DNA of 64,000 bases from Candidatus Uhrbacteria bacterium RIFCSPHIGHO2_02_FULL_46_47 (GCA_001790815.1 MGDU01000022.1:108-64107), one strand, 5' to 3'. Positions 2,677 through 64,000 are shown, counted from the first letter of the stretch. Notes: generated by a model not told the origin, from the sequence alone. Translations and numbers: made by a program.

Positions 2677-3237
2677 TTATTTTTCAATCCGCGCGATCTT
2701 TTTCAGTCTTCGTACATGGCGCGGCTCGCCGGAAAATGGAGTGGCAAGCCAAATATCAATTATTGGTTTGGCTTGAGCAAAGGTTAGGGCTAGGTCGCGG
2801 GCGGCAGGATCTTTGGTTTTACCGCCGCCAAAGCACAAAACATTGGTGTCATTGTGCCAGCGACTCATCTTAGCGCTCACTTTATCCCAAGCGCGCACGG
2901 CGCGTACGCCTTTTACTTTGTTGGCCACAATACACTCGCCAATTCCAGAGCCGCCTAAGGCAATTCCCCTCACCCCAACCCTCTCCCACACGGGGAGAGG
3001 GAGAGCGTTTGAATTCCTCCTCCTTAATGGGGGAGGATTAAGGTGGGGGTGGGCTTTGGCAACCGCTTTGGCCATAGGAATTATAAAATCTGGATAATCA
3101 TCTTCTGGGTTATACTCATGCGGCCCAAAATCGCGCACTTTATAGCCGCGTTTTTTCAAATACGCCACAATTTGTTTTTTAAGCTCAAACGCGGCATGAT
3201 CCCCGGCGAGGTAGATGGTTGGCCTTGCCATAGTCAT
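2677..3237 (-). CDS. rpiB: ribose-5-phosphate isomerase B (RpiB/LacAB family) with in-frame repeat insert
   Basis: GGSGIGECIVANKVKGVRA motif. An inserted PPPLRRRNSNALPLPVWERVGVRG segment is encoded by a PSP-GEG element. Confidence 0.8.
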   Translation of the reverse strand: MTMARPTIYLAGDHAAFELKKQIVAYLKKRGYKVRDFGPHEYNPEDDYPDFIIPMAKAVAKAHPHLNPPPLRRRNSNALPLPVWERVGVRGIALGGSGIGECIVANKVKGVRAVRAWDKVSAKMSRWHNDTNVLCFGGGKTKDPAARDLALTFAQAKPIIDIWLATPFSGEPRHVRRLKKIARIEK

Positions 3238-3253
3238 CTATTCTACCGAACTC

Positions 3254-3282
3254 TTGACAAATACGCAAAATCATGCTATATT
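3254..3282 (+). promoter_or_regulatory. sigma70-like promoter (TTGACA-17-TATATT) upstream of the GC-rich ORF at 3331
   Basis: TTGACA at 3254-3259, exact 17-nt spacer, TATATT at 3277-3282. Confidence 0.5.
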
Positions 3283-3330
3283 AAAAAGGTTCTTTGATGG
3301 CAAGCCTGGGGTCTTGGCAATTCTGCCAGG

Positions 3331-3969
3331 ATGAGAGGTAAGCCAGAACATGGAGAGTGGATCATGGCAAAAAACATGGGTCCGGGTCAGAAGTCAGCGG
3401 TTCGATCGGCCGCAGGTAAGATGGCGGCGATCTGGATGGCGCTCGAGGCAGCCGTGCGTCAACGCGGTGGCAACGACGACGCGATCCTGCAGCTCGATTC
3501 GGAGGGAGCACAGTCGCTCCTCGAGAAGATCGCAGAATTGCTCGTCGCGAAGGTGGCCGTGCCTATCGTGAACGTCGCCTACCAAGCGGTGCTCACCTGG
3601 GTCATCGCGGTCTGCCGGTTCGTGTCCTACGTGGACCCGAATATCACGGCCGCGAACTTCCAGCTCCAGCTCGGAGACCTCACGCTCAAGGAAGTCATCG
3701 TCGTCGCAATCGACAAGGCGATGAGCACCGCCGACGTGCTCCAGCATCTGGACAACCAAGGTCTGCGGCCAGCCACGCTCCTGGAGCTCCTCTACTGGTG
3801 GTTGACCAACCCGAATAAGCACGCTAACTGCCTAGTGGTTGCGCTCGGACAGGTTTGGCGGGGTGGTGTGCCCTACGTCTACGGCCGCGGTGTTTGCCGG
3901 GAGCTCAGCCTCTGCGCGGTTGCGAGCGGCTGGGGTCAGGTCTGCAGCTTTGCCGCCGTCCGCAAGTAG
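3331..3969 (+). CDS. hypothetical protein, GC-rich orphan (cassette A)
   Basis: The ORF is visibly GC-rich relative to its flanks. A GGAGAG Shine-Dalgarno precedes an internal ATG at 3364. A stem-loop terminator lies downstream. No family recognised. The C-terminal 40 aa are paralogous to ORF 4309-4530. Confidence 0.55.
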   Translation: MRGKPEHGEWIMAKNMGPGQKSAVRSAAGKMAAIWMALEAAVRQRGGNDDAILQLDSEGAQSLLEKIAELLVAKVAVPIVNVAYQAVLTWVIAVCRFVSYVDPNITAANFQLQLGDLTLKEVIVVAIDKAMSTADVLQHLDNQGLRPATLLELLYWWLTNPNKHANCLVVALGQVWRGGVPYVYGRGVCRELSLCAVASGWGQVCSFAAVRK

Positions 3970-4651: not shown

Positions 4652-7600
4652 ATGGCCAATATACCATTTCCAAAACGCGAAGAAGAAATTCTTGAGTTTT
4701 GGGATAAGAATCACGTATTTGAAAAATCTTTACAAAAACCCTCGCCAAAAGGAGAGTTTGTTTTTTATGACGGTCCGCCGTTTGCTACTGGCCTGCCGCA
4801 CTATGGTCATATTTTGGCCTCCACCATCAAAGATGTTATTCCGCGATATAAAACCATGCGTGGCTATCATGTGCGCCGGCGGTGGGGCTGGGATTGCCAC
4901 GGTTTGCCGATTGAAAATATTGTAGAGCAAAAACTGGGCATTTCTGGAAAAAAGCAAATTGAAGAGCGCGGGATTGCGGAGTTTAATCGGGCTTGTAGAG
5001 AAGGCGTTTTGGCCTATGCGGCAGAATGGGGGAAAATGGTGCGCCGTATCGGACGCTTCGTGGAGTTTGAAAATTCCTACAAAACCATGGATTCCACCTA
5101 CATGGAATCAGTGTGGTGGGCACTTAAACAAATTTGGGACAAAAAACTTATTTATGAAGGACGCAAAGTGCTTCTTTATTGTCCGCGCTGTGAAACTCCG
5201 ATTTCCAACTTTGAAGTCGCCATGGACAACAGTTATGAAGAGGTTACGGAGGAGGCGGTTATAGTAAAATTTCTAATTCACCTAATTTCTAATTCACCTA
5301 ATCAAATTCCAAATAATGCGCCGGTGTACATGCTCGCGTGGACCACTACGCCGTGGACGCTGCCGGGAAACGTGGCGTTGGCAGTGGGAGAGGAGATTGA
5401 TTATGTGATGGTGCGTACCCCCTCACCCGCTCCAACCACGGTTGGAGCACCCTCTCCCGCACGGGGAGAGGGAGATCGTTTTGATTCCTCCCCCTTGATG
5501 GGGGAGGATAAAGGTGGGGGTGAGTATCTGATCCTTGCCAAATCCCGCCTTGCAATCCTCACCGAACCATATGAAGTCGTGCAAGAAATGAAGGGTAAAG
5601 ATTTGGTTGGACTTGAATATGCGCCGCTATTTAAAGTAGAAGGACTGTCCTTGCGCGCGCGCAAAGACAGTCCTTCTCGTCGAGCTTTCAAGGTGTATCC
5701 TGCGGATTTTGTGACGACCGAAGAGGGCACAGGCATTGTGCACACGGCTGTAGTGTATGGTGAAGATGATTATAATTTGGGACTCAAATACAAATTGCCA
5801 GTGGTACCTTTGCTTGATGAAAAAGGTGTATTTAATGAAAAATCGCCAGAGCTCATCTCCGGGCAGTATTTTAAAGATTCGGAAAATACCATTAAAAAAG
5901 ATCTGGAGGCGCGGGGACTTATGTACAAGCGCGAGAAGTATACGCACTCCTATCCATTTTGCTGGCGTTGTGATACGCAGCTTTTTTACAATGCTATTCC
6001 AGCTTGGTTTGTTAAAATTTCCAAACTTAAGAAAAAACTCCTGAAACTTAATGAGAAAATTAACTGGTATCCAGAGCATTTAAAACATGGTCGGTTTAAA
6101 AATGGCCTTGAAAATGCGCCAGATTGGAATATCTCACGTAATCGGTATTGGGCTACTCCTTTGCCGTTTTGGAGATGTGTTGTGCATAACCCTCCCCAGC
6201 CCTCCCTTACCTTAAGGGAGGGAGAGAATTTAAGTCCTCCCCTTAAGATAAGGGGAGGTGCAGGAGGGGTTATGAATGGTGGCTGTGGTAACGTGGTTTG
6301 CATTGGGTCGTTTCAGGAGTTGAAGCAACGTGCGACAAATTACGACGAGGTGTACAAGTCGCATGATCTTAAGGATATTGATTTACACCGTCCGTATATT
6401 GATGAGGTGAAAATCAAGTGCGATAAATGCGATAGCGAGATGCGGCGCATTCCGGAAGTCGTGGACTGTTGGGTAGAATCCGCGTCCATGCCGTTTGCCG
6501 AGTTTCATTTTCCGTTTGAAAATCAGGAAGAATTTAAAAGGCGTTATCCGGCGGATTTTGTGGCAGAATACATTGCACAAACGCGGGCTTGGTTTTATGT
6601 CATGCATGTAATTGGTAGCGCGATTTTTGGAAAGCCGCCATTTAAAAATGTGGTTACCACTGGCACGATTCTGGCAGAGGATGGCAGTAAGATGTCTAAG
6701 TCAAAACAGAATTTTCCTGATCCGTGGGATTTGATTAATCGTTATGGTGTTGATGCTTTGCGTTTTCACCTTATGACTTCGGTTGTCATGCAAGCTGACA
6801 ATCTGAATTTTTCCGAGCGCGAGGTTGATGGGATTTATAAAAAAGTAGTATTGCTTACGCAAAATGTACTGAGTTTTTACAAATTGTATGCACCACCCCT
6901 AACCCCTCCTCCACAAGGAGGGGAAACGAATCAATTTCCTCCCCTGCCCGAGGGTATTTCCTCCCCTGCCCGAGGGGAGGCTAGGAGGGGTGGGAGCGGA
7001 GGGGTGGGAGATGTACCGTCTAATTCACGCCACATTCTTGATCGCTGGATTATAGCGCGGCTCCATGAAACAATTCGTGATATGACTGAAGGGTTAGATC
7101 GTTATGATGTAGTGCGAGCTGGGCGTTTGATTCCAGAGTTTGTAAATAATCTTTCAACTTGGTATTTGCGCAGATCGCGCGAGCGTTTCAAAAGCAGTAA
7201 AAAATCAGAACGTGAATCAGCTCTACGTACTACGTCCTACATTCTACATACTTTTTCCCAACTGCTCGCTCCCTTTATGCCGTTTTTGGCAGAACATGTG
7301 TGGCAAGAAGTTACGAGTTACGAGTTACGAGTTACGAGTTACTCGGTACATTTAGCTGACTGGCCTAAGGTGAAGAAATCCAAAATTGATACGGCACTGC
7401 TTGAGGAGATGCGAGTGGCGCGAAAAATTGTGGAATTGACGCATGCGGCGCGCGCCGAGGCAAAAATCAAAGTACGTCAGCCGTTGGAAGAATTAAAAAT
7501 TCAAAATGTAAAATTAAAAATGAGTGAGGAATTATTGAGATTGATTGCGGAGGAGGTGAATGTGAAAGAGGTGAAGATTGTCCCCTCACCTCAATCCTCT

Positions 7601-12929: not shown

Positions 12930-14027
12930 ATGATGGTTGAAATTAATGATCAAAAAGTTTGGAACGAATGGTTGCTTTCCCAACGAATGCAAACCGGGAT
13001 TTTTTTGCAAAGTTGGGAGTGGGGGGAATTTCAAAAAACAGTCGGGCACAAGGTGCATCGCTATCTAAATCAAGATAAAGATACGATTGCACGATTGCGC
13101 AATCGTGAAATAGCGCAAGTTATTGAATTGCCATTGCCGCTTGGAAAAAAGTATTGGTTTATCCCCCGCGGGGAAGCTTTGCCTGGCCTTGTGGGAGAAG
13201 CACAAAAGCATGGAGTATGGTTTATCCGCTTTGAACCTATTACGAGTGATGGGTTACGAGTTAAGAGTTATGTGAAAACACGGGATATAAGTCCGCCGCA
13301 AACACTCATTATTGATTTGGGTAAAAGTGAAGAGGAGTTGCTTGCGCAAATGCACGAGAAAACGCGATACAATGTGCGACTTGCGATTAGGAAAGGTGTG
13401 GAAGTGCGTTTTTCCGCCAAAGGCGGATCCGCCTCGGGCGGAGAAGAATTTTGGAAACTAATGCAGGAGACGGCAAAGCGTGATAAGTTTAGCACGCATC
13501 CGCGGGAGTATTATGAAAAAATGCTAGAGGTGCTTAGCAATTACCCCTCACCTCAATCCTCTCCCACACGGGGAGAGGAAGAGAAAGACAATCCCTCTCC
13601 CTTAGGGAGAGGGGAAAAAACAAACACCCCTCTTAAGGTAAGAGGGGATGGGGGAGTTATGCATGTTCGTCTCCATATGGCCTATCAGGGCATTACTCCG
13701 GTTGCCGGAGCAATCGTGGGTTATTTTGGCGACACCGCAACCTATCTTCACGGCGCTTCCTCATACGAGCATCGCGCGGCAATGGGACCCTATGCTTTGC
13801 ACTTCCAAATCATGAAAGAGGCGAAAAAAGAAGGGTACAAATTTTATGATTTTTGGGGAGTCAATACTACATACTACAAACTACATACTACGAACTCATG
13901 GGCGGGCATGACGCGATTTAAAACGGGATTTGGTGGACAAGTTGTAGATTATCCCGGCACCTTTGACTTGCCACTTAACAAATTTTGGTATACAGTGTAT
14001 CGGCTTGGAAGAAGAATGCTCCCATAG
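12930..14027 (+). CDS. FemAB-family peptidoglycan bridge-forming peptidyltransferase with in-frame repeat inserts
   Basis: The N- and C-terminal halves resemble FemX/FemA (HEKTRYNVRLAIRKGVEV, YLHGASSYEHRAAMGPYALHFQIM). Inserts lie at 13545-13662 (PSP-GEG) and 13861-13893 (TTYYKLHTT). Confidence 0.7.
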   Translation: MMVEINDQKVWNEWLLSQRMQTGIFLQSWEWGEFQKTVGHKVHRYLNQDKDTIARLRNREIAQVIELPLPLGKKYWFIPRGEALPGLVGEAQKHGVWFIRFEPITSDGLRVKSYVKTRDISPPQTLIIDLGKSEEELLAQMHEKTRYNVRLAIRKGVEVRFSAKGGSASGGEEFWKLMQETAKRDKFSTHPREYYEKMLEVLSNYPSPQSSPTRGEEEKDNPSPLGRGEKTNTPLKVRGDGGVMHVRLHMAYQGITPVAGAIVGYFGDTATYLHGASSYEHRAAMGPYALHFQIMKEAKKEGYKFYDFWGVNTTYYKLHTTNSWAGMTRFKTGFGGQVVDYPGTFDLPLNKFWYTVYRLGRRMLP

Positions 14028-49489: not shown

Positions 49490-49511
49490 CCCCCTCCCCT
49501 GTGAACAAACC

Positions 49512-49540
49512 AAAAAAGAGCTCAATTGGGCTCTTTTTTG
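49512..49540. terminator. bidirectional terminator
   Basis: aaaaaagagc-tcaattg-ggctctttttt. Confidence 0.6.
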
Positions 49541-49545
49541 GTTTG

Positions 49546-54358: not shown

Positions 54359-56242
54359 ATGGAATCATCACAAACAGAATTTGTTTCAAAACCAGTGCAT
54401 GGCGGAGGCACTTCTTCAAGACGACCGCGAGGGCGCGGCGGGCGTCAGTTTAGCCGTCCCCGACAGTCGCCGCCCGCTCGCCCTCCGGCAACAAGCCGCC
54501 CGTCGCGTCCTGCGCCTGTTCAAATTACGGCGCCCAGAAGCGGCGCGCCTCGCCGAGACGAGTCGAGGCCGGGCGCGCCTAAACTTTTGGTTTACGCGTT
54601 GGGCGGACTGGAAGAAGTCGGTCGCAATTGTATGGTCTATGAATGCGGTGAAGATATTGTGATTGTGGACATGGGACTTCAGTTTCCGGAGGAAGATATG
54701 CATGGTATTGATTATATTATTCCCAACATTGCCTCACTTCGCGGAAAAGAAAAAAATATTCGCGGAGTGATAATTACCCACGGCCACTACGATCACATCG
54801 GCGGCATCCCTCATCTTTTAGGCAAACTTGGCAACCCGCCGGTCTTCACCACCCCGCTTAGCGCGGGAATTATCCGCAAACGTCAGGAAGAATTTACCAA
54901 AGCCCCAAGGCCAAATATCGTGCTTGTAAAACCAAAGATGAAAATTGCGCTCGGCCGACACTTTGTGTTTGAGCCGTTCCATGTGAATCACAACATCGCC
55001 GACTCAACTGGGGCGGCGCTTCAAACTCCCTACGGGCTCATGTTGCATACCGGCGATTTTAAATTTGACTATACTCCGGTAAATGAACCGCCGGCGGATA
55101 TTGATCACGTGCGATCGTTCGGCGACAAGGGCGTGCTCGCGCTTTTTTCCGACTCAACTGATGCGGAATATCCCGGACACCAAATTTCTGAACAGCAAGT
55201 TTTTGATGAGCTGGAAAAGATATTTGCGGCAAACTCGCAAGGCCGTCTTATCTTTGGAACTTTTGCTTCGCTCTTAACGCGTATTCAGCATATTCTTACT
55301 CTTTCGGAAAAATACGGACGCAAAGTTCTTATTCAGGGTCGTTCCATGGTAACGAACGTGGAGATAGCCCATGAACTCGGGTATCTAAAATTCAAGCAAG
55401 GGATTTTTATTGAGGAAAAAGAGTTTAATCGCCTTCCGGATAACAAAATCGTAGTGGTCTGCACCGGTGGGCAGGGAGAAAAAAATGCCCAACTCATGCG
55501 TATCGCGAATAGCGAACATCGCCTGATTAGTTTGAAGAAAGGAGATTCCATTATTTTTTCTTCTTCCGTGATCCCTGGCAATGAGCGTACGATTCAGAGT
55601 TTGAAGGACGCGCTCATCCGTCACGGCGCAAAGATATTCCACTACAAATTTATGGATATTCATGCCGGAGGCCATGCCAAACAGGAGGAACTCAAACTAA
55701 TGATGCAGCTTACGCGCCCGCGTTATGTAATTCCTATTCATGCAAACCGCTTTATGATCCAGGCGCACGCTGATTTGGCAATGAGCATCGGTTACAAAGA
55801 AGAAAATATCTTTGTGGCAGACAATGGTCAGGTTATGGAGTTTGATGCCAAAGGCGGACGGCTGACTGATAGATATGTGCCAACTGATTACGTTATGGTT
55901 GATGGGCTTGGGGTCGGGGATGTATCTGAGATTGTGCTTCGCGATCGGCAACAGCTTGCGGCGGATGGTATGTTTGTGGTCATTGCCACAATTGATAAAC
56001 GCACCGGCGCCCTCATTGGCAGTCCGGATATTATTTCGCGCGGGTTTGTGTATTTGAAAGAATCACGCGAACTTATTGAGCGCACGCGCAATCTGGTACG
56101 GAAGATTTTGAAAGACACTGATCCAAAATCTGCCGCCTTTGAAGATCATATTAAAAATAAAATCCGCAATGAGGTCGGGCAATATCTCTATACCATGACC
56201 CGCCGCCGCCCAATGGTGCTCCCGGTGTTGATTGAGGTATAA
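54359..56242 (+). CDS. rnj: ribonuclease J with an Arg/Pro-rich N-terminal extension
   Basis: HGHYDHIGG metallo-beta-lactamase motif plus beta-CASP and C-terminal domains. The start is placed at MESSQTEF; the track ORF start at 54086 overlaps the tRNA genes. Confidence 0.8.
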   Translation: MESSQTEFVSKPVHGGGTSSRRPRGRGGRQFSRPRQSPPARPPATSRPSRPAPVQITAPRSGAPRRDESRPGAPKLLVYALGGLEEVGRNCMVYECGEDIVIVDMGLQFPEEDMHGIDYIIPNIASLRGKEKNIRGVIITHGHYDHIGGIPHLLGKLGNPPVFTTPLSAGIIRKRQEEFTKAPRPNIVLVKPKMKIALGRHFVFEPFHVNHNIADSTGAALQTPYGLMLHTGDFKFDYTPVNEPPADIDHVRSFGDKGVLALFSDSTDAEYPGHQISEQQVFDELEKIFAANSQGRLIFGTFASLLTRIQHILTLSEKYGRKVLIQGRSMVTNVEIAHELGYLKFKQGIFIEEKEFNRLPDNKIVVVCTGGQGEKNAQLMRIANSEHRLISLKKGDSIIFSSSVIPGNERTIQSLKDALIRHGAKIFHYKFMDIHAGGHAKQEELKLMMQLTRPRYVIPIHANRFMIQAHADLAMSIGYKEENIFVADNGQVMEFDAKGGRLTDRYVPTDYVMVDGLGVGDVSEIVLRDRQQLAADGMFVVIATIDKRTGALIGSPDIISRGFVYLKESRELIERTRNLVRKILKDTDPKSAAFEDHIKNKIRNEVGQYLYTMTRRRPMVLPVLIEV

Positions 56243-56345
56243 TAAACAACTTTCCTCCCCTTAAGTCCGACGTTTCAGTCGGACTCCGTACCGTAGCGTC
56301 GGAGATAAGGGGAGGTGAGGAGGGGTTATGAATCTCTCATAATTC
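56243..56345. repeat. CCTCCCCTTA-type repeat element between rnj and trpS
   Basis: cctccccttaagtccgacgtttcagtcggactccgtaccgtagcgtcggagataaggggaggtgaggaggggttatgaa; near-identical copies at 57417-57497 and 63143-63240. Confidence 0.7.
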
Positions 56346-56392: not shown

Positions 56393-57409
56393 ATGTCCAA
56401 AGTATTTTCAGGCATCCGTCCATCTGGGCTTCTTCACCTCGGCAATTACCTTGGTGCGATTAAAAATTGGATCGCGCTCCAAGCGAAGCACGATTGTATT
56501 TTTGCCATTGTTGATTATCATGGAATTACCACCCCATTTGAACCAGATGAGTTGCGCCAAAATATCCGTGAAGTTGCTTTGGATTATTTAGCAGTAGGGC
56601 TTGATCCTAAGCATGCCACTCTAATTCAGCAATCTCATGTTCCGGAACACGTGGAGCTGGGATGGATTTTTCAATCCATTTCTCCGGTTTCCTGGTTTGA
56701 GCGCGTGCCAACTTATAAAGAAAAAATTGCCCAACATCCTGAATATGTGAATTTGGGATTGCTTGCCTATCCCGCGCTTATGGCTGCGGATATTTTAATT
56801 TATAAATCCACGCTGGTGCCGGTTGGCGAAGATCAACTTCCACACATTGAGCTCACAAACGACATCGCCAAACGCTTCAATCACATGTTTGGTTCCCCTC
56901 CCCCACTCCCTCTCCCTAAGGGAGAGGGCAGGGTGAGGGTGGAATTCTTCCCCCCAGTCAAAGCTCTCCTTACTGAAGGCGCGCGCATCATGTCGCTTAA
57001 AGATCCTCGCAAAAAGATGTCTAAAACTGGAGACGAAGGCATTGCGCTTTCCGATACACCCGATGAAGTACGCCGCAAGATTAAAACCGCCACTACTGAT
57101 TCCGGGCGCGAGATCAAAGCAGGGGATGATAAACCCGCGCTTACCAACTTGCTTACGATTTATTCTGAAGTATCTGGCACACCAATTAAAAAACTTGAAA
57201 CACAATACAAAGGCAAGGGTTATGCCGAATTTAAAGCTGATCTTGCTGAAGCCGTGGTGGAATTTTTAGAACCAATTCAAAAACGCCGCAAAGAACTGGA
57301 AAAAAAGCGCGGCTATGTGGAAGAAATCCTGTCCTCCGGCGCCGCCTCCGCCCGCCCCCTGGCTCAAAAGACCCTTTTAGAGGTGAAAAAGAAAATGGGG
57401 TTGATATGA
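56393..57409 (+). CDS. trpS: tryptophanyl-tRNA synthetase with in-frame repeat insert
   Basis: SGIRPSGLLHLGNYLGA, VPVGEDQLPHIELTNDIA and KMSKT motifs. Insert at 56893-56947. Confidence 0.85.
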   Translation: MSKVFSGIRPSGLLHLGNYLGAIKNWIALQAKHDCIFAIVDYHGITTPFEPDELRQNIREVALDYLAVGLDPKHATLIQQSHVPEHVELGWIFQSISPVSWFERVPTYKEKIAQHPEYVNLGLLAYPALMAADILIYKSTLVPVGEDQLPHIELTNDIAKRFNHMFGSPPPLPLPKGEGRVRVEFFPPVKALLTEGARIMSLKDPRKKMSKTGDEGIALSDTPDEVRRKIKTATTDSGREIKAGDDKPALTNLLTIYSEVSGTPIKKLETQYKGKGYAEFKADLAEAVVEFLEPIQKRRKELEKKRGYVEEILSSGAASARPLAQKTLLEVKKKMGLI

Positions 57410-57501
57410 ATCCAGCTTCCTCCACTTAAGTCCGACGTTTCAGTCGGACTCCGTACCGTAGCGTCGGAGATAAGGGGCAGCCAGGAGGGGTTATGAAATT
57501 C

Positions 57502-58711: not shown

Positions 58712-58786
58712 TATTTACTTTAAAGCAAAAAATGAAAAAATACTTATCATCCTCACCAATACTACTCATCCTCCAATTCCACCATC

Positions 58787-58832
58787 AACGACTCAATTAT
58801 TTGCGATCGCACATTGTTGAGCCGTTGGGAAA
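58787..58832. promoter_or_regulatory. 43-bp imperfect palindrome overlapping the promoter of the 58912 gene
   Basis: caacgactcaattatttgcgatcgcacattgttgagccgttg, followed by TATGAT. Confidence 0.45.
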
Positions 58833-58911
58833 TGTGCTATGATGGTTGTGGATAGTTTTGGCAACAATCTTTTTAGGACAGTATTTTAGCAAATTATAAG
58901 CCTGCAATAGT

Positions 58912-59493
58912 ATGAGTACTAAACTACAATTGAAAAAATTCCAAATCGTTCTTTTGCAATTGTATGCTGGATATCGGGAACTTGACCATGCACTCGCTTC
59001 ATATAAGCCAAGGAGTCATACGCCCGGATGGGACTCTACTGGCTATAGTGAGCGCGAGCGAAAATTAGCAGAGCGTGAAATAAAATATCTTTATAAGCGT
59101 ATTGAATATTTAAAGCGGTGCAATTATATTCAAATGGTTAAGGAGGGAGAGGAAAAATTATTGAAGCTTACTTCAAAAGGAAAATATGAACTTTTGCGTT
59201 TACGGTTTGTAGAACACATGCTCATGCAGAAGAAACAATCATGGGCGCGCAAGTGGTGGATATTGATTTTTGATATCCCAGAGTCACAAAAGAAGTATCG
59301 TAATTTTTTCCGCCGATTTTTGAAACAAAATGGTTTTAAGATGGTACAACGTTCAGTTTGGATTACGCCATACAACCCGGAATCTGCCTTAGTTGATCTT
59401 TTGAGATACCTAAGGATTGAAAAATATTTTGAACTTATTGAAGCAGATTGCGAGCGATGTAGTACCACACTTTTAAAAAAATTCAAACCATGA
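58912..59493 (+). CDS. PaaX-like/Cas2-fold putative regulator (tentative)
   Basis: The C-terminal segment WWILIFDIPESQKKYRNFFRRFLKQNGFKMVQRSVWITPY follows a Cas2/PaaX_C-like pattern. The N-terminal half is helical. There is no CRISPR array nearby. Confidence 0.3.
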   Translation: MSTKLQLKKFQIVLLQLYAGYRELDHALASYKPRSHTPGWDSTGYSERERKLAEREIKYLYKRIEYLKRCNYIQMVKEGEEKLLKLTSKGKYELLRLRFVEHMLMQKKQSWARKWWILIFDIPESQKKYRNFFRRFLKQNGFKMVQRSVWITPYNPESALVDLLRYLRIEKYFELIEADCERCSTTLLKKFKP

Positions 59494-59540
59494 TCAGGGG
59501 AGCGTGCAACGCCGCAAGTTGAAACATTTAGTGAATGTAT

Positions 59541-59583
59541 AAACGGCTCAATATTTTGCGATCGCACATTATTGAGTCGTTTG
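59541..59583. promoter_or_regulatory. second copy of the 43-bp palindrome, overlapping the rnpB promoter
   Basis: aacggctcaatattttgcgatcgcacattattgagtcgttt, followed by TTGACA-17-TAGAGT. Confidence 0.45.
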
Positions 59584-59616
59584 ACTATTGACAGGGAAGG
59601 ATAGATATGATAGAGT
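59581..59616 (+). promoter_or_regulatory. sigma70-like promoter of rnpB
   Basis: TTGACA at 59588-59593, 17-nt spacer, TAGAGT at 59611-59616. Confidence 0.45.
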
Positions 59617-59617
59617 G

Positions 59618-60216
59618 TGGATGCTTACAAAAAGCTGGATGATCGCTCCGACTTAGGTCGGGGAGGAAAGTCCGAACACCCCCGCAGTAATGTGGGAAAA
59701 AGGTACCACCTAACGGGTGGGCAGTATGACGGGGATATCATCCGGTCATCCGATCGGACAAGAAACTCCGCTGACGGATCAGTGCCACAGAGACAATACT
59801 AATCGTGCCTCACTATCATTCGGCACTCCGTTACGAATTACGAATCTTGTACGAAACTACGAAACAACAAATTTGTAGTTTTGTAGCGACATTTGTGGAT
59901 TCGTACACAGAGCACCGAGCGACAGTGAGGTGCGGTGAAAGGTGAAAAGTGAAGGAATGTTAATCGCTTACACAAGCCTAAAACTTGTGAAAACGAGAAG
60001 GCTATTCTTCTTACCGTGGGGTAACTCACGGCGTTGGAAAACCCTACCTGGTGCAACGCCATTTACGGCGGCTTGAGGTCCCGCGCGAGTGGGATCCCAG
60101 AGAGATGATCATTAAACCACAGATCTTACAACACAGATCACACAAATATCTGTGAAAATCTGTGATCAAAATCTGTGGTTACAGAATTCGGCTTACGGGC
60201 TTTTTGTAAGCATTTG
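59618..60216 (+). ncRNA. rnpB: RNase P RNA (bacterial type, extended to about 600 nt)
   Basis: P1 pairing between tgcttacaaaaagc (59622-59635) and gctttttgtaagca (60199-60212). Conserved GGAAAGTCCGAACAC (P4 5' strand), ACAGAGACAATAC, and ACAGAATTCGGCTTA near the 3' end. An extended helix of cacagatc/gatctgtg repeats at 60115-60175. Confidence 0.7.
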
Positions 60217-61703: not shown

Positions 61704-61740
61704 ATTTTTTATTTAAGTCGTGTTACTATTCCGATGCCAT

Positions 61741-61785
61741 TCGTAATTTGTAGATTTGCATGAAATTTGTAGATTGGCATCATAT
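61741..61785. repeat. GCATGAAATTYGTAGATTGGCATCATA-family repeat
   Basis: A second copy lies in frame in the next GT gene at 63647-63690. Confidence 0.55.
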
Positions 61786-62906: not shown

Positions 62907-64000
62907 GAATTGGTATTGATGGACGCGCATTGCAAGATCATCCGCGCGGAGGCGTGGGGCAATATGCTTACCATCTTTTGTACGCTCTTTTTTCTTTAGA
63001 TCATGGGAATGAATATGTGGTGTGGTATAACGCGGCTAGAAAACTTGAAGTGCCGATGTTTTCCGAGTATCCAAATGTGCGCGTACATCGTACAAATTGG
63101 CCAAATAAAATGTTAAATCTTTCCATGAAGGTGTTGGGCTCCCCGCGAGTTCCTCCCCTTAGGTCCGACGCTCCAGTCGGACTCCGACCCCGTGGGGCGT
63201 CGGAGATAAGGGGAGGGGAGGAGGGGTTACGAAATTTTGATATTTTTTTTATGCCCAATATTAATTTTGTCGCGCTATCCCCCACAACTAAGCTGATTAT
63301 TACCGCACACGACCTTTCTTTTGTGCATTTTCCCGAGCATTTTTCGCGTAAAACCAGATTGTGGCATCGCGCGATAAATCCACGCGCATTATTCAATCGT
63401 GCGGATCATATCGTTACTGTATCCGCGCATACAAAAGACGATCTTGTGGAAACGTATGGTATCGCGCAGGAAAAAGTGAGCGTGATTTATCCGGGTGTTG
63501 AAGTCAACAGTTCACAGACTACAGTTCACAGTAAAAGCAAAACCGTGAACCGTGAACCGATGACTGATGGCTTCATATTGTATTTCGGCGCGCTTGAGCC
63601 GCGCAAGAATATTGAGGGAATTATAGAGGCCTTTGAGCTTCTTCATTCGCAATTTGCAAATTCGCATGAAATTCGTAGATTGGCATCATACTTGATTATT
63701 GCCGGCCTCTCTACACCGTATGTAAAATATCTTAAAAAACGCATTGCGAAAAGCAAGGTTAGGGATCGCGTAATCCTGAAAGAAAATCCCACGGAAGAAG
63801 AAAAGGAAACACTCTATGCAGGAGCATCACTCTTTGTGTATCCTTCATTTTACGAAGGGTTTGGTTTTCCTCCGCTTGAAGCCATGTCATACGGCGTGCC
63901 GGTAGTTGCTTCTTCAGCTTCGTCTGTTCCGGAGATTTGCGGCGACGCAGCAATGCTGGTAAATCCGTGGGATGTGAATGAAATAAAAGAGGGGATGCGG
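62904..64000 (+). CDS. glycosyltransferase family 4 (partial, runs off window end) with three in-frame repeat inserts
   Basis: The ORF is continuous to the window edge and so is not in the ORF track. EGFGFPPLEAMSYGVPVVAS motif. Inserts lie at 63143-63240, 63500-63565 and 63647-63690. Confidence 0.7.

Follow-up and report, generated by a model that had tools for sequence, protein, structure and literature searches.

A PaaX-like gene between two long palindromes upstream of rnpB in Candidatus Uhrbacteria: a predicted self-contained and probably autorepressed module

Why would a small gene for a PaaX-like protein be enclosed by two copies of a long palindrome, the second of which stops just short of the promoter of rnpB, the gene for the RNase P RNA? 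The question is raised by a stretch of 64,000 nucleotides (nt) from Candidatus Uhrbacteria bacterium RIFCSPHIGHO2_02_FULL_46_47 (GCA_001790815.1, MGDU01000022.1:108-64107), hereafter called the window, in which positions are counted from the first letter. An earlier note on this DNA had taken the palindromes for operators of a dimeric DNA-binding protein, plausibly the product of the flanked gene, and had proposed that the regulator's own gene and the essential RNase P RNA would then be under common control. Our comparison of homologous loci suggests that positions 58786 to 59582 probably form a self-contained, autorepressed PaaX-like module with paired cognate operators, a prediction drawn from comparative sequence analysis. 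The place of this module beside rnpB looks incidental.

Both palindromes are indeed present on either side of the PaaX-like gene, a few bases away from the coordinates first given for them (Table 1). They are imperfect, with a CGATCG dyad and a self-complementarity of 83 to 87% each, and are 86% identical to one another as direct repeats. A degenerate pattern of their 30-nt core was found at two places in the 64 kb, both of them the palindromes themselves, against an expectation of 0.00 (100 shuffles). A search of the window for the half-site ACGRCTCAAT, which the earlier note had proposed, likewise returned exact matches in the interior of the two palindromes only, and just 2 of the 17 CGATCG sites, again those of the palindromes, are surrounded by a long palindrome. 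With two copies in 64 kb, the element is not the generic repeat that the earlier note had considered as the alternative, nor is it a HIP1-like genome repeat, as GCGATCGC was not enriched (3 seen against 1.5 expected). No Rfam family matched the palindromes at gathering or E-value thresholds.

We compared 23 independent loci carrying homologues of the gene (27 to 74% identity) from Uhrbacteria, Saccharibacteria, Paceibacterota, Wolfebacteria, and other metagenome-assembled genomes; five of the loci were contributed by a metagenome protein scan. For each gene, the upstream flank was aligned to the downstream flank, with no palindrome assumed. In almost all loci, the element shared by the flanks was a GATC-centred palindrome, and a clear pair of palindromes bracketed the gene in 19 of the 23. 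In locus L011, the upstream copy is complete and the downstream one decayed, the truncated locus L022 has the one copy that is observable, L023 has a pair with a different centre, and L017 has a 12-mer (TCGCGATTGCGA) at the promoter only. The palindromes span 36 to 42 bp (median, 36). Their centre is CGATCG in most loci (TGCGATCGCA in Uhrbacteria and GACGATCGTC in Saccharibacteria; also TCACGATCGTGA, TCGCGATCGCGA, and TCCGATCGGA) and GGATCC in L015 and L020, two weak matches binned as Gammaproteobacteria. The arms are common to the copies of one locus and unrelated between loci. Among the 35 long zero-spacer palindromes in the 290 kb fetched, 25 are centred on CGATCG, and 21 of these 25 adjoin PaaX-like genes.

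The genes around the module change from locus to locus. It has PfkB and a convergent gene as neighbours in L001 and nusB in L007, and the downstream copy is followed by a convergent gene in L006 and by a small membrane-protein gene in L003. In the window it stands among TrpRS, a protein without a family match, rnpB, and a sugar transferase; only here and in the orthologous locus L002 is rnpB its neighbour. At L028, TrpRS, rnpB, and the sugar transferase occur in the same order with neither a PaaX-like gene nor a palindrome, and the −35 TTGACA of rnpB overlaps the TrpRS stop codon. At L026, which shares this synteny, rnpB has its own TTGACA promoter, and both the module and the promoter palindrome are absent. 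We consider L026 a true empty site because it keeps the ordinary terminator that precedes the modules in L002 and L005. A solo CGATCG hairpin in L026 was tried as an excision scar and rejected, since its orthologues in L002 and L005 are ordinary terminators whose loops differ. The homology between L002 and the window begins at window position 58791, in the left arm of palindrome 1, and the genes upstream of this point are unrelated. Since synteny without the gene is also synteny without the palindrome, and since homology starts at the left arm, gene and palindromes have been gained or lost as one unit. Where rnpB lacks the module it also lacks the palindrome, and palindrome 2 is therefore not an ancestral part of the rnpB promoter. 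Judged from these alignments, the downstream copy belongs to the module of the PaaX-like gene and not to rnpB.

The placement of the upstream copy is consistent with an operator. Palindrome 1, which is situated between divergent gene starts, overlaps with its right arm the −35 zone of the predicted promoter of the PaaX-like gene and covers approximately −64 to −23 relative to the predicted transcription start; the −10 element starts 32 nt from the dyad. Across loci, counted from the upstream dyad towards the gene, a −10-like hexamer starts at 31 to 35 nt in 8 of 17 cases. For each of three control orientations, this register occurs in only 2 to 3 of 16 to 17 loci (P ~ 6e-6 with the background rate as it is; P = 0.009 with a threefold inflated background). 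A second class of loci has its −10 at +13 to +18, inside the right arm, so either way the upstream site covers the core promoter of the gene. Downstream copies are without such a promoter register, with 2 of 16 loci at +31 to +35.

The conservation within the element is also patterned. Identity between copies at one locus is 0.88 to 1.00 at positions 1 to 7 from the dyad, 0.76 to 0.82 at positions 8 to 11, and 0.91 to 0.97 at positions 12 to 15, and it is at background level past position 19; self-complementarity falls at positions 8 to 10. This is the pattern of three putative contact zones in an element of 36 to 38 bp, and neither that of a uniformly paired stem nor that of a young duplication.

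Table 1. Coordinates of the predicted module and of the adjoining rnpB gene in the window
Feature	Position	Strand	Description
Palindrome 1 (upstream site)	58786-58827 (42 nt)	.	CAACGACTCAATTATTTGCGATCGCACATTGTTGAGCCGTTG; dyad between 58806 and 58807
Predicted promoter of the PaaX-like gene	58817-58843	+	−35-like TTGAGC at 58817-58822; extended −10 TGcTATGAT at 58835-58843; conserved in L002
PaaX-like gene	58912-59493	+	193 aa; predicted winged helix, linker helix, and Cas2-like PaaX_M
Palindrome 2 (downstream site)	59541-59582 (42 nt)	.	AAACGGCTCAATATTTTGCGATCGCACATTATTGAGTCGTTT; dyad between 59561 and 59562
rnpB promoter	59588-59616	+	TTGACA-17-TGnTAGAGT; neighbour, outside the module
rnpB, RNase P RNA	59627-60211	+	Rfam RNaseP_bact_a, 147 bits; neighbour, outside the module

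The encoded protein resembles PaaX and Cas2 in different degrees. It matches Pfam PaaX_M (PF20803) with 73.2 bits (cut-off, 24; residues 109 to 182), Pfam Cas2 (PF09827) with 30.5 bits (cut-off, 23.8), and NCBIfam cas2 TIGR01573 with 34.4 (cut-off, 24.5). Its score against the NCBIfam PaaX equivalog TIGR02277 is 33.3 bits, far under the cut-off of 264.55, and the Pfam models for the PaaX N terminus and for PaaX_C have no match in the 193-aa protein. In an AlphaFold model (mean pLDDT, 74; residues 1 to 45 below 50 and unreliable), a helix at residues 47 to 69 and a beta-hairpin wing at residues 73 to 86 (pLDDT, 76 to 88) are followed by a linker helix and by the Cas2-like PaaX_M domain at residues 114 to 179, and the protein ends about 14 residues past this domain. 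Of the folds that the earlier note had expected, the Cas2-like one is thus predicted, the winged helix is a putative one, and PaaX_C is absent. The best PDB match found by Foldseek is E. coli PaaX (8A39), with many Cas2 chains next. The FDIPE and QRSVW motifs of the Cas2-like domain are invariant, including D121 in FDIPE, the Asp at the Cas2 catalytic position.

PaaX itself, the phenylacetate repressor of E. coli and Pseudomonas (PDB 8A39 and 3L09), shares the PaaX_M domain and, as predicted, an N-terminal winged helix and is the closest structural relative, but at about 305 to 316 aa it includes a C-terminal helical effector domain, PaaX_C, sensing phenylacetyl-CoA that the protein studied here does not have. 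E. coli PaaX recognises TGATTC(N27)GAATCA, 39 bp in all, and shuts off Px, its own promoter, through steric hindrance (PMC9493321). Such a long-range inverted repeat at the regulator's own promoter has its counterpart, at the level of sequence, in the −10-phased palindromes of 36 to 42 bp. Unlike the PaaX site, these palindromes have a conserved CGATCG centre besides their arms, and two copies bracket the gene. No paa genes were found near the window gene or at the related loci, and the family is essentially one of candidate phyla.

The likeness to Cas2 and VapD is confined to the C-terminal domain, which passes the Cas2 cut-offs and has retained the Asp that closes strand 1. In CRISPR adaptation, a Cas2 dimer placed between two Cas1 dimers extends along duplex DNA, and the gene here also lies between palindromic repeats of CRISPR-repeat size. 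In contrast to CRISPR Cas2, however, the protein carries a fused putative DNA-binding domain, the "spacer" is the gene itself, no cas1 gene and no CRISPR array were found within the 64-kb window, and no cas genes were found beside the PaaX-like gene at the window locus or at related loci. A defence system was considered and rejected, as PADLOC returned generic Cas2 models alone. We file the 193-aa protein as PaaX-like, neither PaaX proper nor CRISPR Cas2. The NCBI label of the L001 homologue (5001-5576, P0002) is "CRISPR-associated endonuclease Cas2", although there are no cas genes at that locus; given the lack of cas1, arrays, and cas genes described above, the label is misleading and probably reflects a systematic misannotation of the family. 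The putative winged-helix region (residues 55 to 91) is weakly similar to AspA/PadR-type and Sso10a winged helices (E ~ 0.01 to 0.03). AspA of pNOB8, for which the likeness is marginal (E ~ 0.01), binds a palindromic centromere and spreads from it, and has palindromic sites next to its gene, as here; it differs in having no Cas2-like domain and in working with ParA/ParB partners, which are absent here.

An exhaustive profile search (E <= 1e-10) yielded 4,262 family representatives at 50% identity, mostly in candidate-phyla bacteria; nearly all of the representatives listed have 165 to 230 aa. Mean pairwise identity is 0.42 in the Cas2-like core, 0.25 in the helix before the wing, and 0.18 at the N terminus, so a variable N-terminal part joined to a conserved core parallels the variable arms and constant centre of the DNA. 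The window and L002 have both the arms and the helix segment LYKRIEYLKRC in common, whereas L009, with equal overall similarity, has different arms and LHRHIDYLKRV. This is a single comparison, and at most a suggestive one.

We propose that in a module ordered palindrome, promoter, gene, palindrome, the minimal PaaX-type protein, with its variable winged helix and conserved Cas2-like dimerisation core, would bind as a dimer across each palindrome of about 36 to 42 bp. Binding at the upstream site, over the −35 zone, would occlude RNA polymerase and repress the protein's own transcription, as the geometry and the PaaX precedent suggest. Recognition of the constant CGATCG centre may fall to the conserved part of the protein, and that of the locus-specific arm hexamers (positions 12 to 17 on each side of the dyad) to the variable recognition helix. 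The downstream copy would be a second cognate site of the module, most likely cooperating with the upstream one, either through a loop of about 0.6 to 0.8 kb or as a block to transcription leaving or entering the gene. This cooperation is the weakest part of the explanation, and candidate roles of the copy are looping between the two sites, insulation of the gene by a roadblock, and marking the boundary or end of an element. Cognate sites on both sides of a gene or hundreds of base pairs away are familiar from looping repressors, such as lambda cI between OL and OR or DeoR and LacI with their auxiliary operators, and distances of 0.6 to 0.8 kb are comparable with the spacing of the deo operators. 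In those systems, however, each operator controls an outward promoter or sits in a defined operon, whereas the downstream site here is usually promoterless and the whole is conserved as a portable unit with a single gene.

The operator part of the earlier note thus gains from the co-occurrence of gene and palindromes at 19 of 23 loci, their joint absence at empty sites, the phasing of the upstream copy with the −10, the tripartite footprint, and a span like that of the 39-bp PaaX site. Several points weigh against the autorepression that we favour. Its support is wholly comparative, with binding as a prediction, and the first 45 residues of the structural model are of low confidence. At L014, a single gene has two palindromes with different arms and only TGACGATCGTCA in common, which weakens the assignment of the arms to the winged helix. 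Many copies are perfect palindromes, and 19 mirrored double changes between copies were observed, more than chance would be expected to give, most clearly in L013 (three) and L016 (one). A bound dimer does not strictly need mirrored changes, which could fit hairpin formation or homogenisation by template switching; template-switch correction of quasi-palindromes is a mechanism that could explain them. A regulator that controls itself alone has no obvious purpose, so that a further activity or further targets must exist, and solo CGATCG palindromes in L018 hint at targets elsewhere. Finally, in about a third of loci, the downstream copy begins within a few bases of the stop codon or overlaps it, and so tight a position is more suggestive of the boundary of an element or of a 3′ end signal than of a classical operator.

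The joint control of rnpB, put forward in the earlier note, fares less well. It supposes that two sites exist so that one repressor can co-regulate its own gene and rnpB, tying rnpB output to the regulator. Palindrome 2 does lie immediately upstream of a strong rnpB promoter, with the −35 starting 27 nt and the −10 starting 50 nt from its dyad, and the same spacing is retained in L002. As L002 and the window are orthologous, however, the shared spacing is not independent evidence. −10-like elements follow each palindrome as described (TGcTATGAT at 58835-58843; TATGAT/TAGAGT at 59607-59616), but the claimed overlap with both promoters holds for palindrome 1 only: palindrome 2 begins 47 nt past the stop codon of the PaaX-like gene, ends 5 nt before the TTGACA of rnpB, and covers approximately −82 to −41 relative to the rnpB start, leaving the core promoter unoccluded. 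Nearly all loci have the downstream copy irrespective of the gene behind it, be that a convergent gene (L001 and L006) or a membrane-protein gene (L003), and the copy is generally without the promoter register. The rnpB genes of L026 and L028 have the same kind of TTGACA promoter and no palindrome, and rnpB beside a module is peculiar to the window and L002. Because the geometry differs, with 50 nt instead of 32 nt from dyad to −10 and a site upstream of the −35, control of rnpB is possible but unsupported, and we consider it unlikely that it accounts for the two sites. If the module is autorepressed and is gained or lost whole in unrelated neighbourhoods, its place 5 nt upstream of the rnpB −35 would be an accident of landing, and any influence on rnpB would come through an occupied UP-element or activator position and not through promoter occlusion.

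A second explanation would make the palindromes the hairpin ends of a small mobile element and the Cas2-fold protein a nuclease or recombinase that cuts at the CGATCG dyad. The module is an insertion/deletion unit in unrelated contexts, both of its ends are direct copies of a hairpin-capable sequence, and extra cargo is enclosed in L018, L014, and L019. The invariant D121, the perfect palindromes with their mirrored changes, the downstream ends that abut the stop codon in several loci, and the presence in one genome of two paralogues with different arms also favour mobility. These paralogues are only 47% identical to each other, however, and no recent movement was seen: the exact protein occurs on at least 23 contigs, all places shown share one context, and the module is identical in the three variant contigs compared, on which ground an inversion or polymorphism of the segment in the population was also rejected. 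The locus is identical in Ca. Uhrbacteria RIFCSPLOWO2_01_FULL_47_24 (GCA_001791415.1, MGEO01000010), with a 100% match of the sugar transferase. An origin in a phage or plasmid was rejected given the lack of relatives in viral contigs, phage records, and plasmid records and of any PHROG match. No target duplication or conserved target is visible, the empty sites are scar-free, and there are no dispersed solo copies in the 64 kb. PaaX, a repressor, keeps the same motifs, and neither a tripartite footprint nor a promoter register is expected of transposon ends. We therefore regard a mobile element of this kind as quite improbable.

The closest mobile parallels are the RAYT/REP and IS200/IS605 systems, in which a single small gene likewise lies between two group-specific, hairpin-capable palindromes that covary with the gene lineage. 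Here, however, the copies are direct and not inverted, and there is no HUH/Y1 transposase: Pfam, NCBIfam, and PHROG gave no match to one, and neither a His-hydrophobic-His motif nor an invariant Tyr was found among the invariant columns of the homologue alignment. The absence of dispersed copies in the 64 kb and of recent movement and the promoter phasing of the upstream copy set it further apart from RAYT/REP. Integron cassettes were also considered and rejected, since attC core sites (RYYYAAC...GTTRRRY) are not conserved across loci; AAC...GTT ends occur in the window copies only (best match, 6/7) and are absent from the palindromes of other loci, and no integron integrase was found among the neighbours of the PaaX-like gene. 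A past inversion, suggested by a swapped A/G mismatch in the outer arms of the window copies, was dropped because the pattern is absent in L002. In a wider version of the mobile explanation, the loci would be palindrome-gene-palindrome cassettes in which the Cas2-fold domain binds or cuts DNA in a sequence-specific manner at the CGATCG dyad, an unrecognised selfish, mobile, or defence-related class that has radiated into thousands of lineages of candidate-phyla bacteria. We hold this, too, to be rather doubtful; if true, it would show a link between a Cas2-like protein and palindromic repeats alive today in a setting other than CRISPR.

It is very unlikely that the palindromes act as RNA or transcription hairpins, whether as stem-loops or terminators at the 5′ and 3′ ends that stabilise the mRNA or set its limits without involvement of the protein, or as RNA sites bound by it. 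Some observations do accord with such a role: the downstream copy stands close behind the stop codon in many loci, the upstream copy ends 8 to 13 nt before the ATG in several, so that part of it may be transcribed, and Cas2 and VapD relatives include ribonucleases. The hairpins, with a free energy of −9 to −11 kcal/mol as single-stranded DNA, are also more stable than shuffled controls (z, −3.3 to −4.2). Set against this, the −10 is downstream of the upstream copy in many loci (the window, L002, L006, L008, L010, L013, and L016), and the copy is then not transcribed with the gene. Mismatches in the palindromes have no strand bias of the G.U type (12 G.T against 10 A.C), and self-complementarity dips at positions 8 to 10. 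A terminator scan gave nothing at either palindrome and no T-run follows, so an intrinsic terminator was rejected, and ordinary terminators separate from the palindrome precede the upstream copy in L002 and L005. A role in RNA is unlikely because of the missing strand bias, the position of the −10, and the lack of an Rfam match and of a terminator.

That another host factor for CGATCG or GATC (a methyltransferase, restriction enzyme, or nucleoid protein) is responsible, with only an indirect link to the gene, is extremely unlikely: although GATC is the only universal constant of the element (mostly as CGATCG; GGATCC in L015 and L020), and GATC and CGATCG are classic methylation targets (PMC4390886), the 15 other CGATCG sites of the window lack a palindrome, the 17 sites are neither avoided nor enriched relative to the estimate from base composition, the arms are conserved between copies in a locus-specific manner, and the strict linkage to one gene family would be left unexplained.

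If the module is autorepressed as proposed, a very large family (~4,300 clusters at 50% identity, E <= 1e-10) would have a simple, testable logic, in which each member is a minimal PaaX-type protein with its own pair of cognate sites of about 40 bp. The misleading Cas2 annotation would be corrected, and the family would offer, for the study of how DNA specificity evolves, a natural collection of mutually orthogonal pairs of protein and operator, in which the centre is constant and the arms vary. It would also raise the question of why a gene needs its own binding site on both sides. For the window, it would remove the attractive but unsupported idea of a dedicated repressor of the RNase P RNA. 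We found no prior description of a gene-between-two-palindromes architecture in the literature searched.

Some of the related loci are more complex. L018 (8394-10485) has three palindrome copies and a 1.35-kb cargo region with zinc-ribbon-like open reading frames. L014 (7561-8675) combines an outer pair of identical 49-nt copies with another, dissimilar palindrome on the promoter and an open reading frame for a small membrane protein, and L019 (~195-2369) has about 1.4 kb of cargo and an upstream copy split by a 20-nt insertion. The solo CGATCG palindromes of L018, a Saccharibacteria contig, occupy intergenic positions (2043-2092 and 13855-13898), and their arms do not resemble the module's. 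The last letters of the second are TATAAA, and the ATG of a cytidylyltransferase-like gene follows 8 nt later. Both palindromes may be terminators, or else sites elsewhere in the genome on which regulators of this type act. A bAvd/23S_rRNA_IVP-like gene is found near the module in L001 (1145-1513), and in L027, from the same Uhrbacteria genome as L001, HigB-like and PIN toxin genes (1137-1415 and 6187-6552) occur around the sugar transferase locus.

The RNase P RNA of the window is itself unusual in length, with 585 nt against a 367-position model. It has inserted hairpins at ~59790-59920 (TACGAA-rich) and ~60100-60190 (ACAGATC/ATCTGTG repeats). The match in L026 (3410-3800) has 391 nt and little or no insertion, and the rnpB genes of L028 (3393-3928) and L027 (3145-3661) have other insertions, so the expansions are lineage specific. 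Upstream of the intact rnpB of L026, at 3185-3370, there is an inverted fragment like the 3′ end of rnpB together with a duplicated GTAAGGAAACCTTGCACC, which suggests a past rearrangement in an intergenic hotspot.

The window contains further palindromes and repeats. Two long palindromes with other centres lie at 5638-5677 and 49506-49545; one is a GCGCGC-centred 40-mer, and the other, CAAACCAAAAAAGAGCTCAATTGGGCTCTTTTTTGGTTTG, resembles a bidirectional terminator. A 94-nt direct repeat (88% identical; 56239-56332 and 57404-57497), with the hairpin GTCCGACGTTTCAGTCGGAC and the end AGGAGGGGTTATGAA, brackets the TrpRS gene; with the module, this makes two genes in the window that are enclosed by a pair of structured elements. 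A 47-nt repeat (89% identical; 61738-61784 and 63644-63690) precedes glycosyltransferase genes, for which it may serve as a common promoter or operator.

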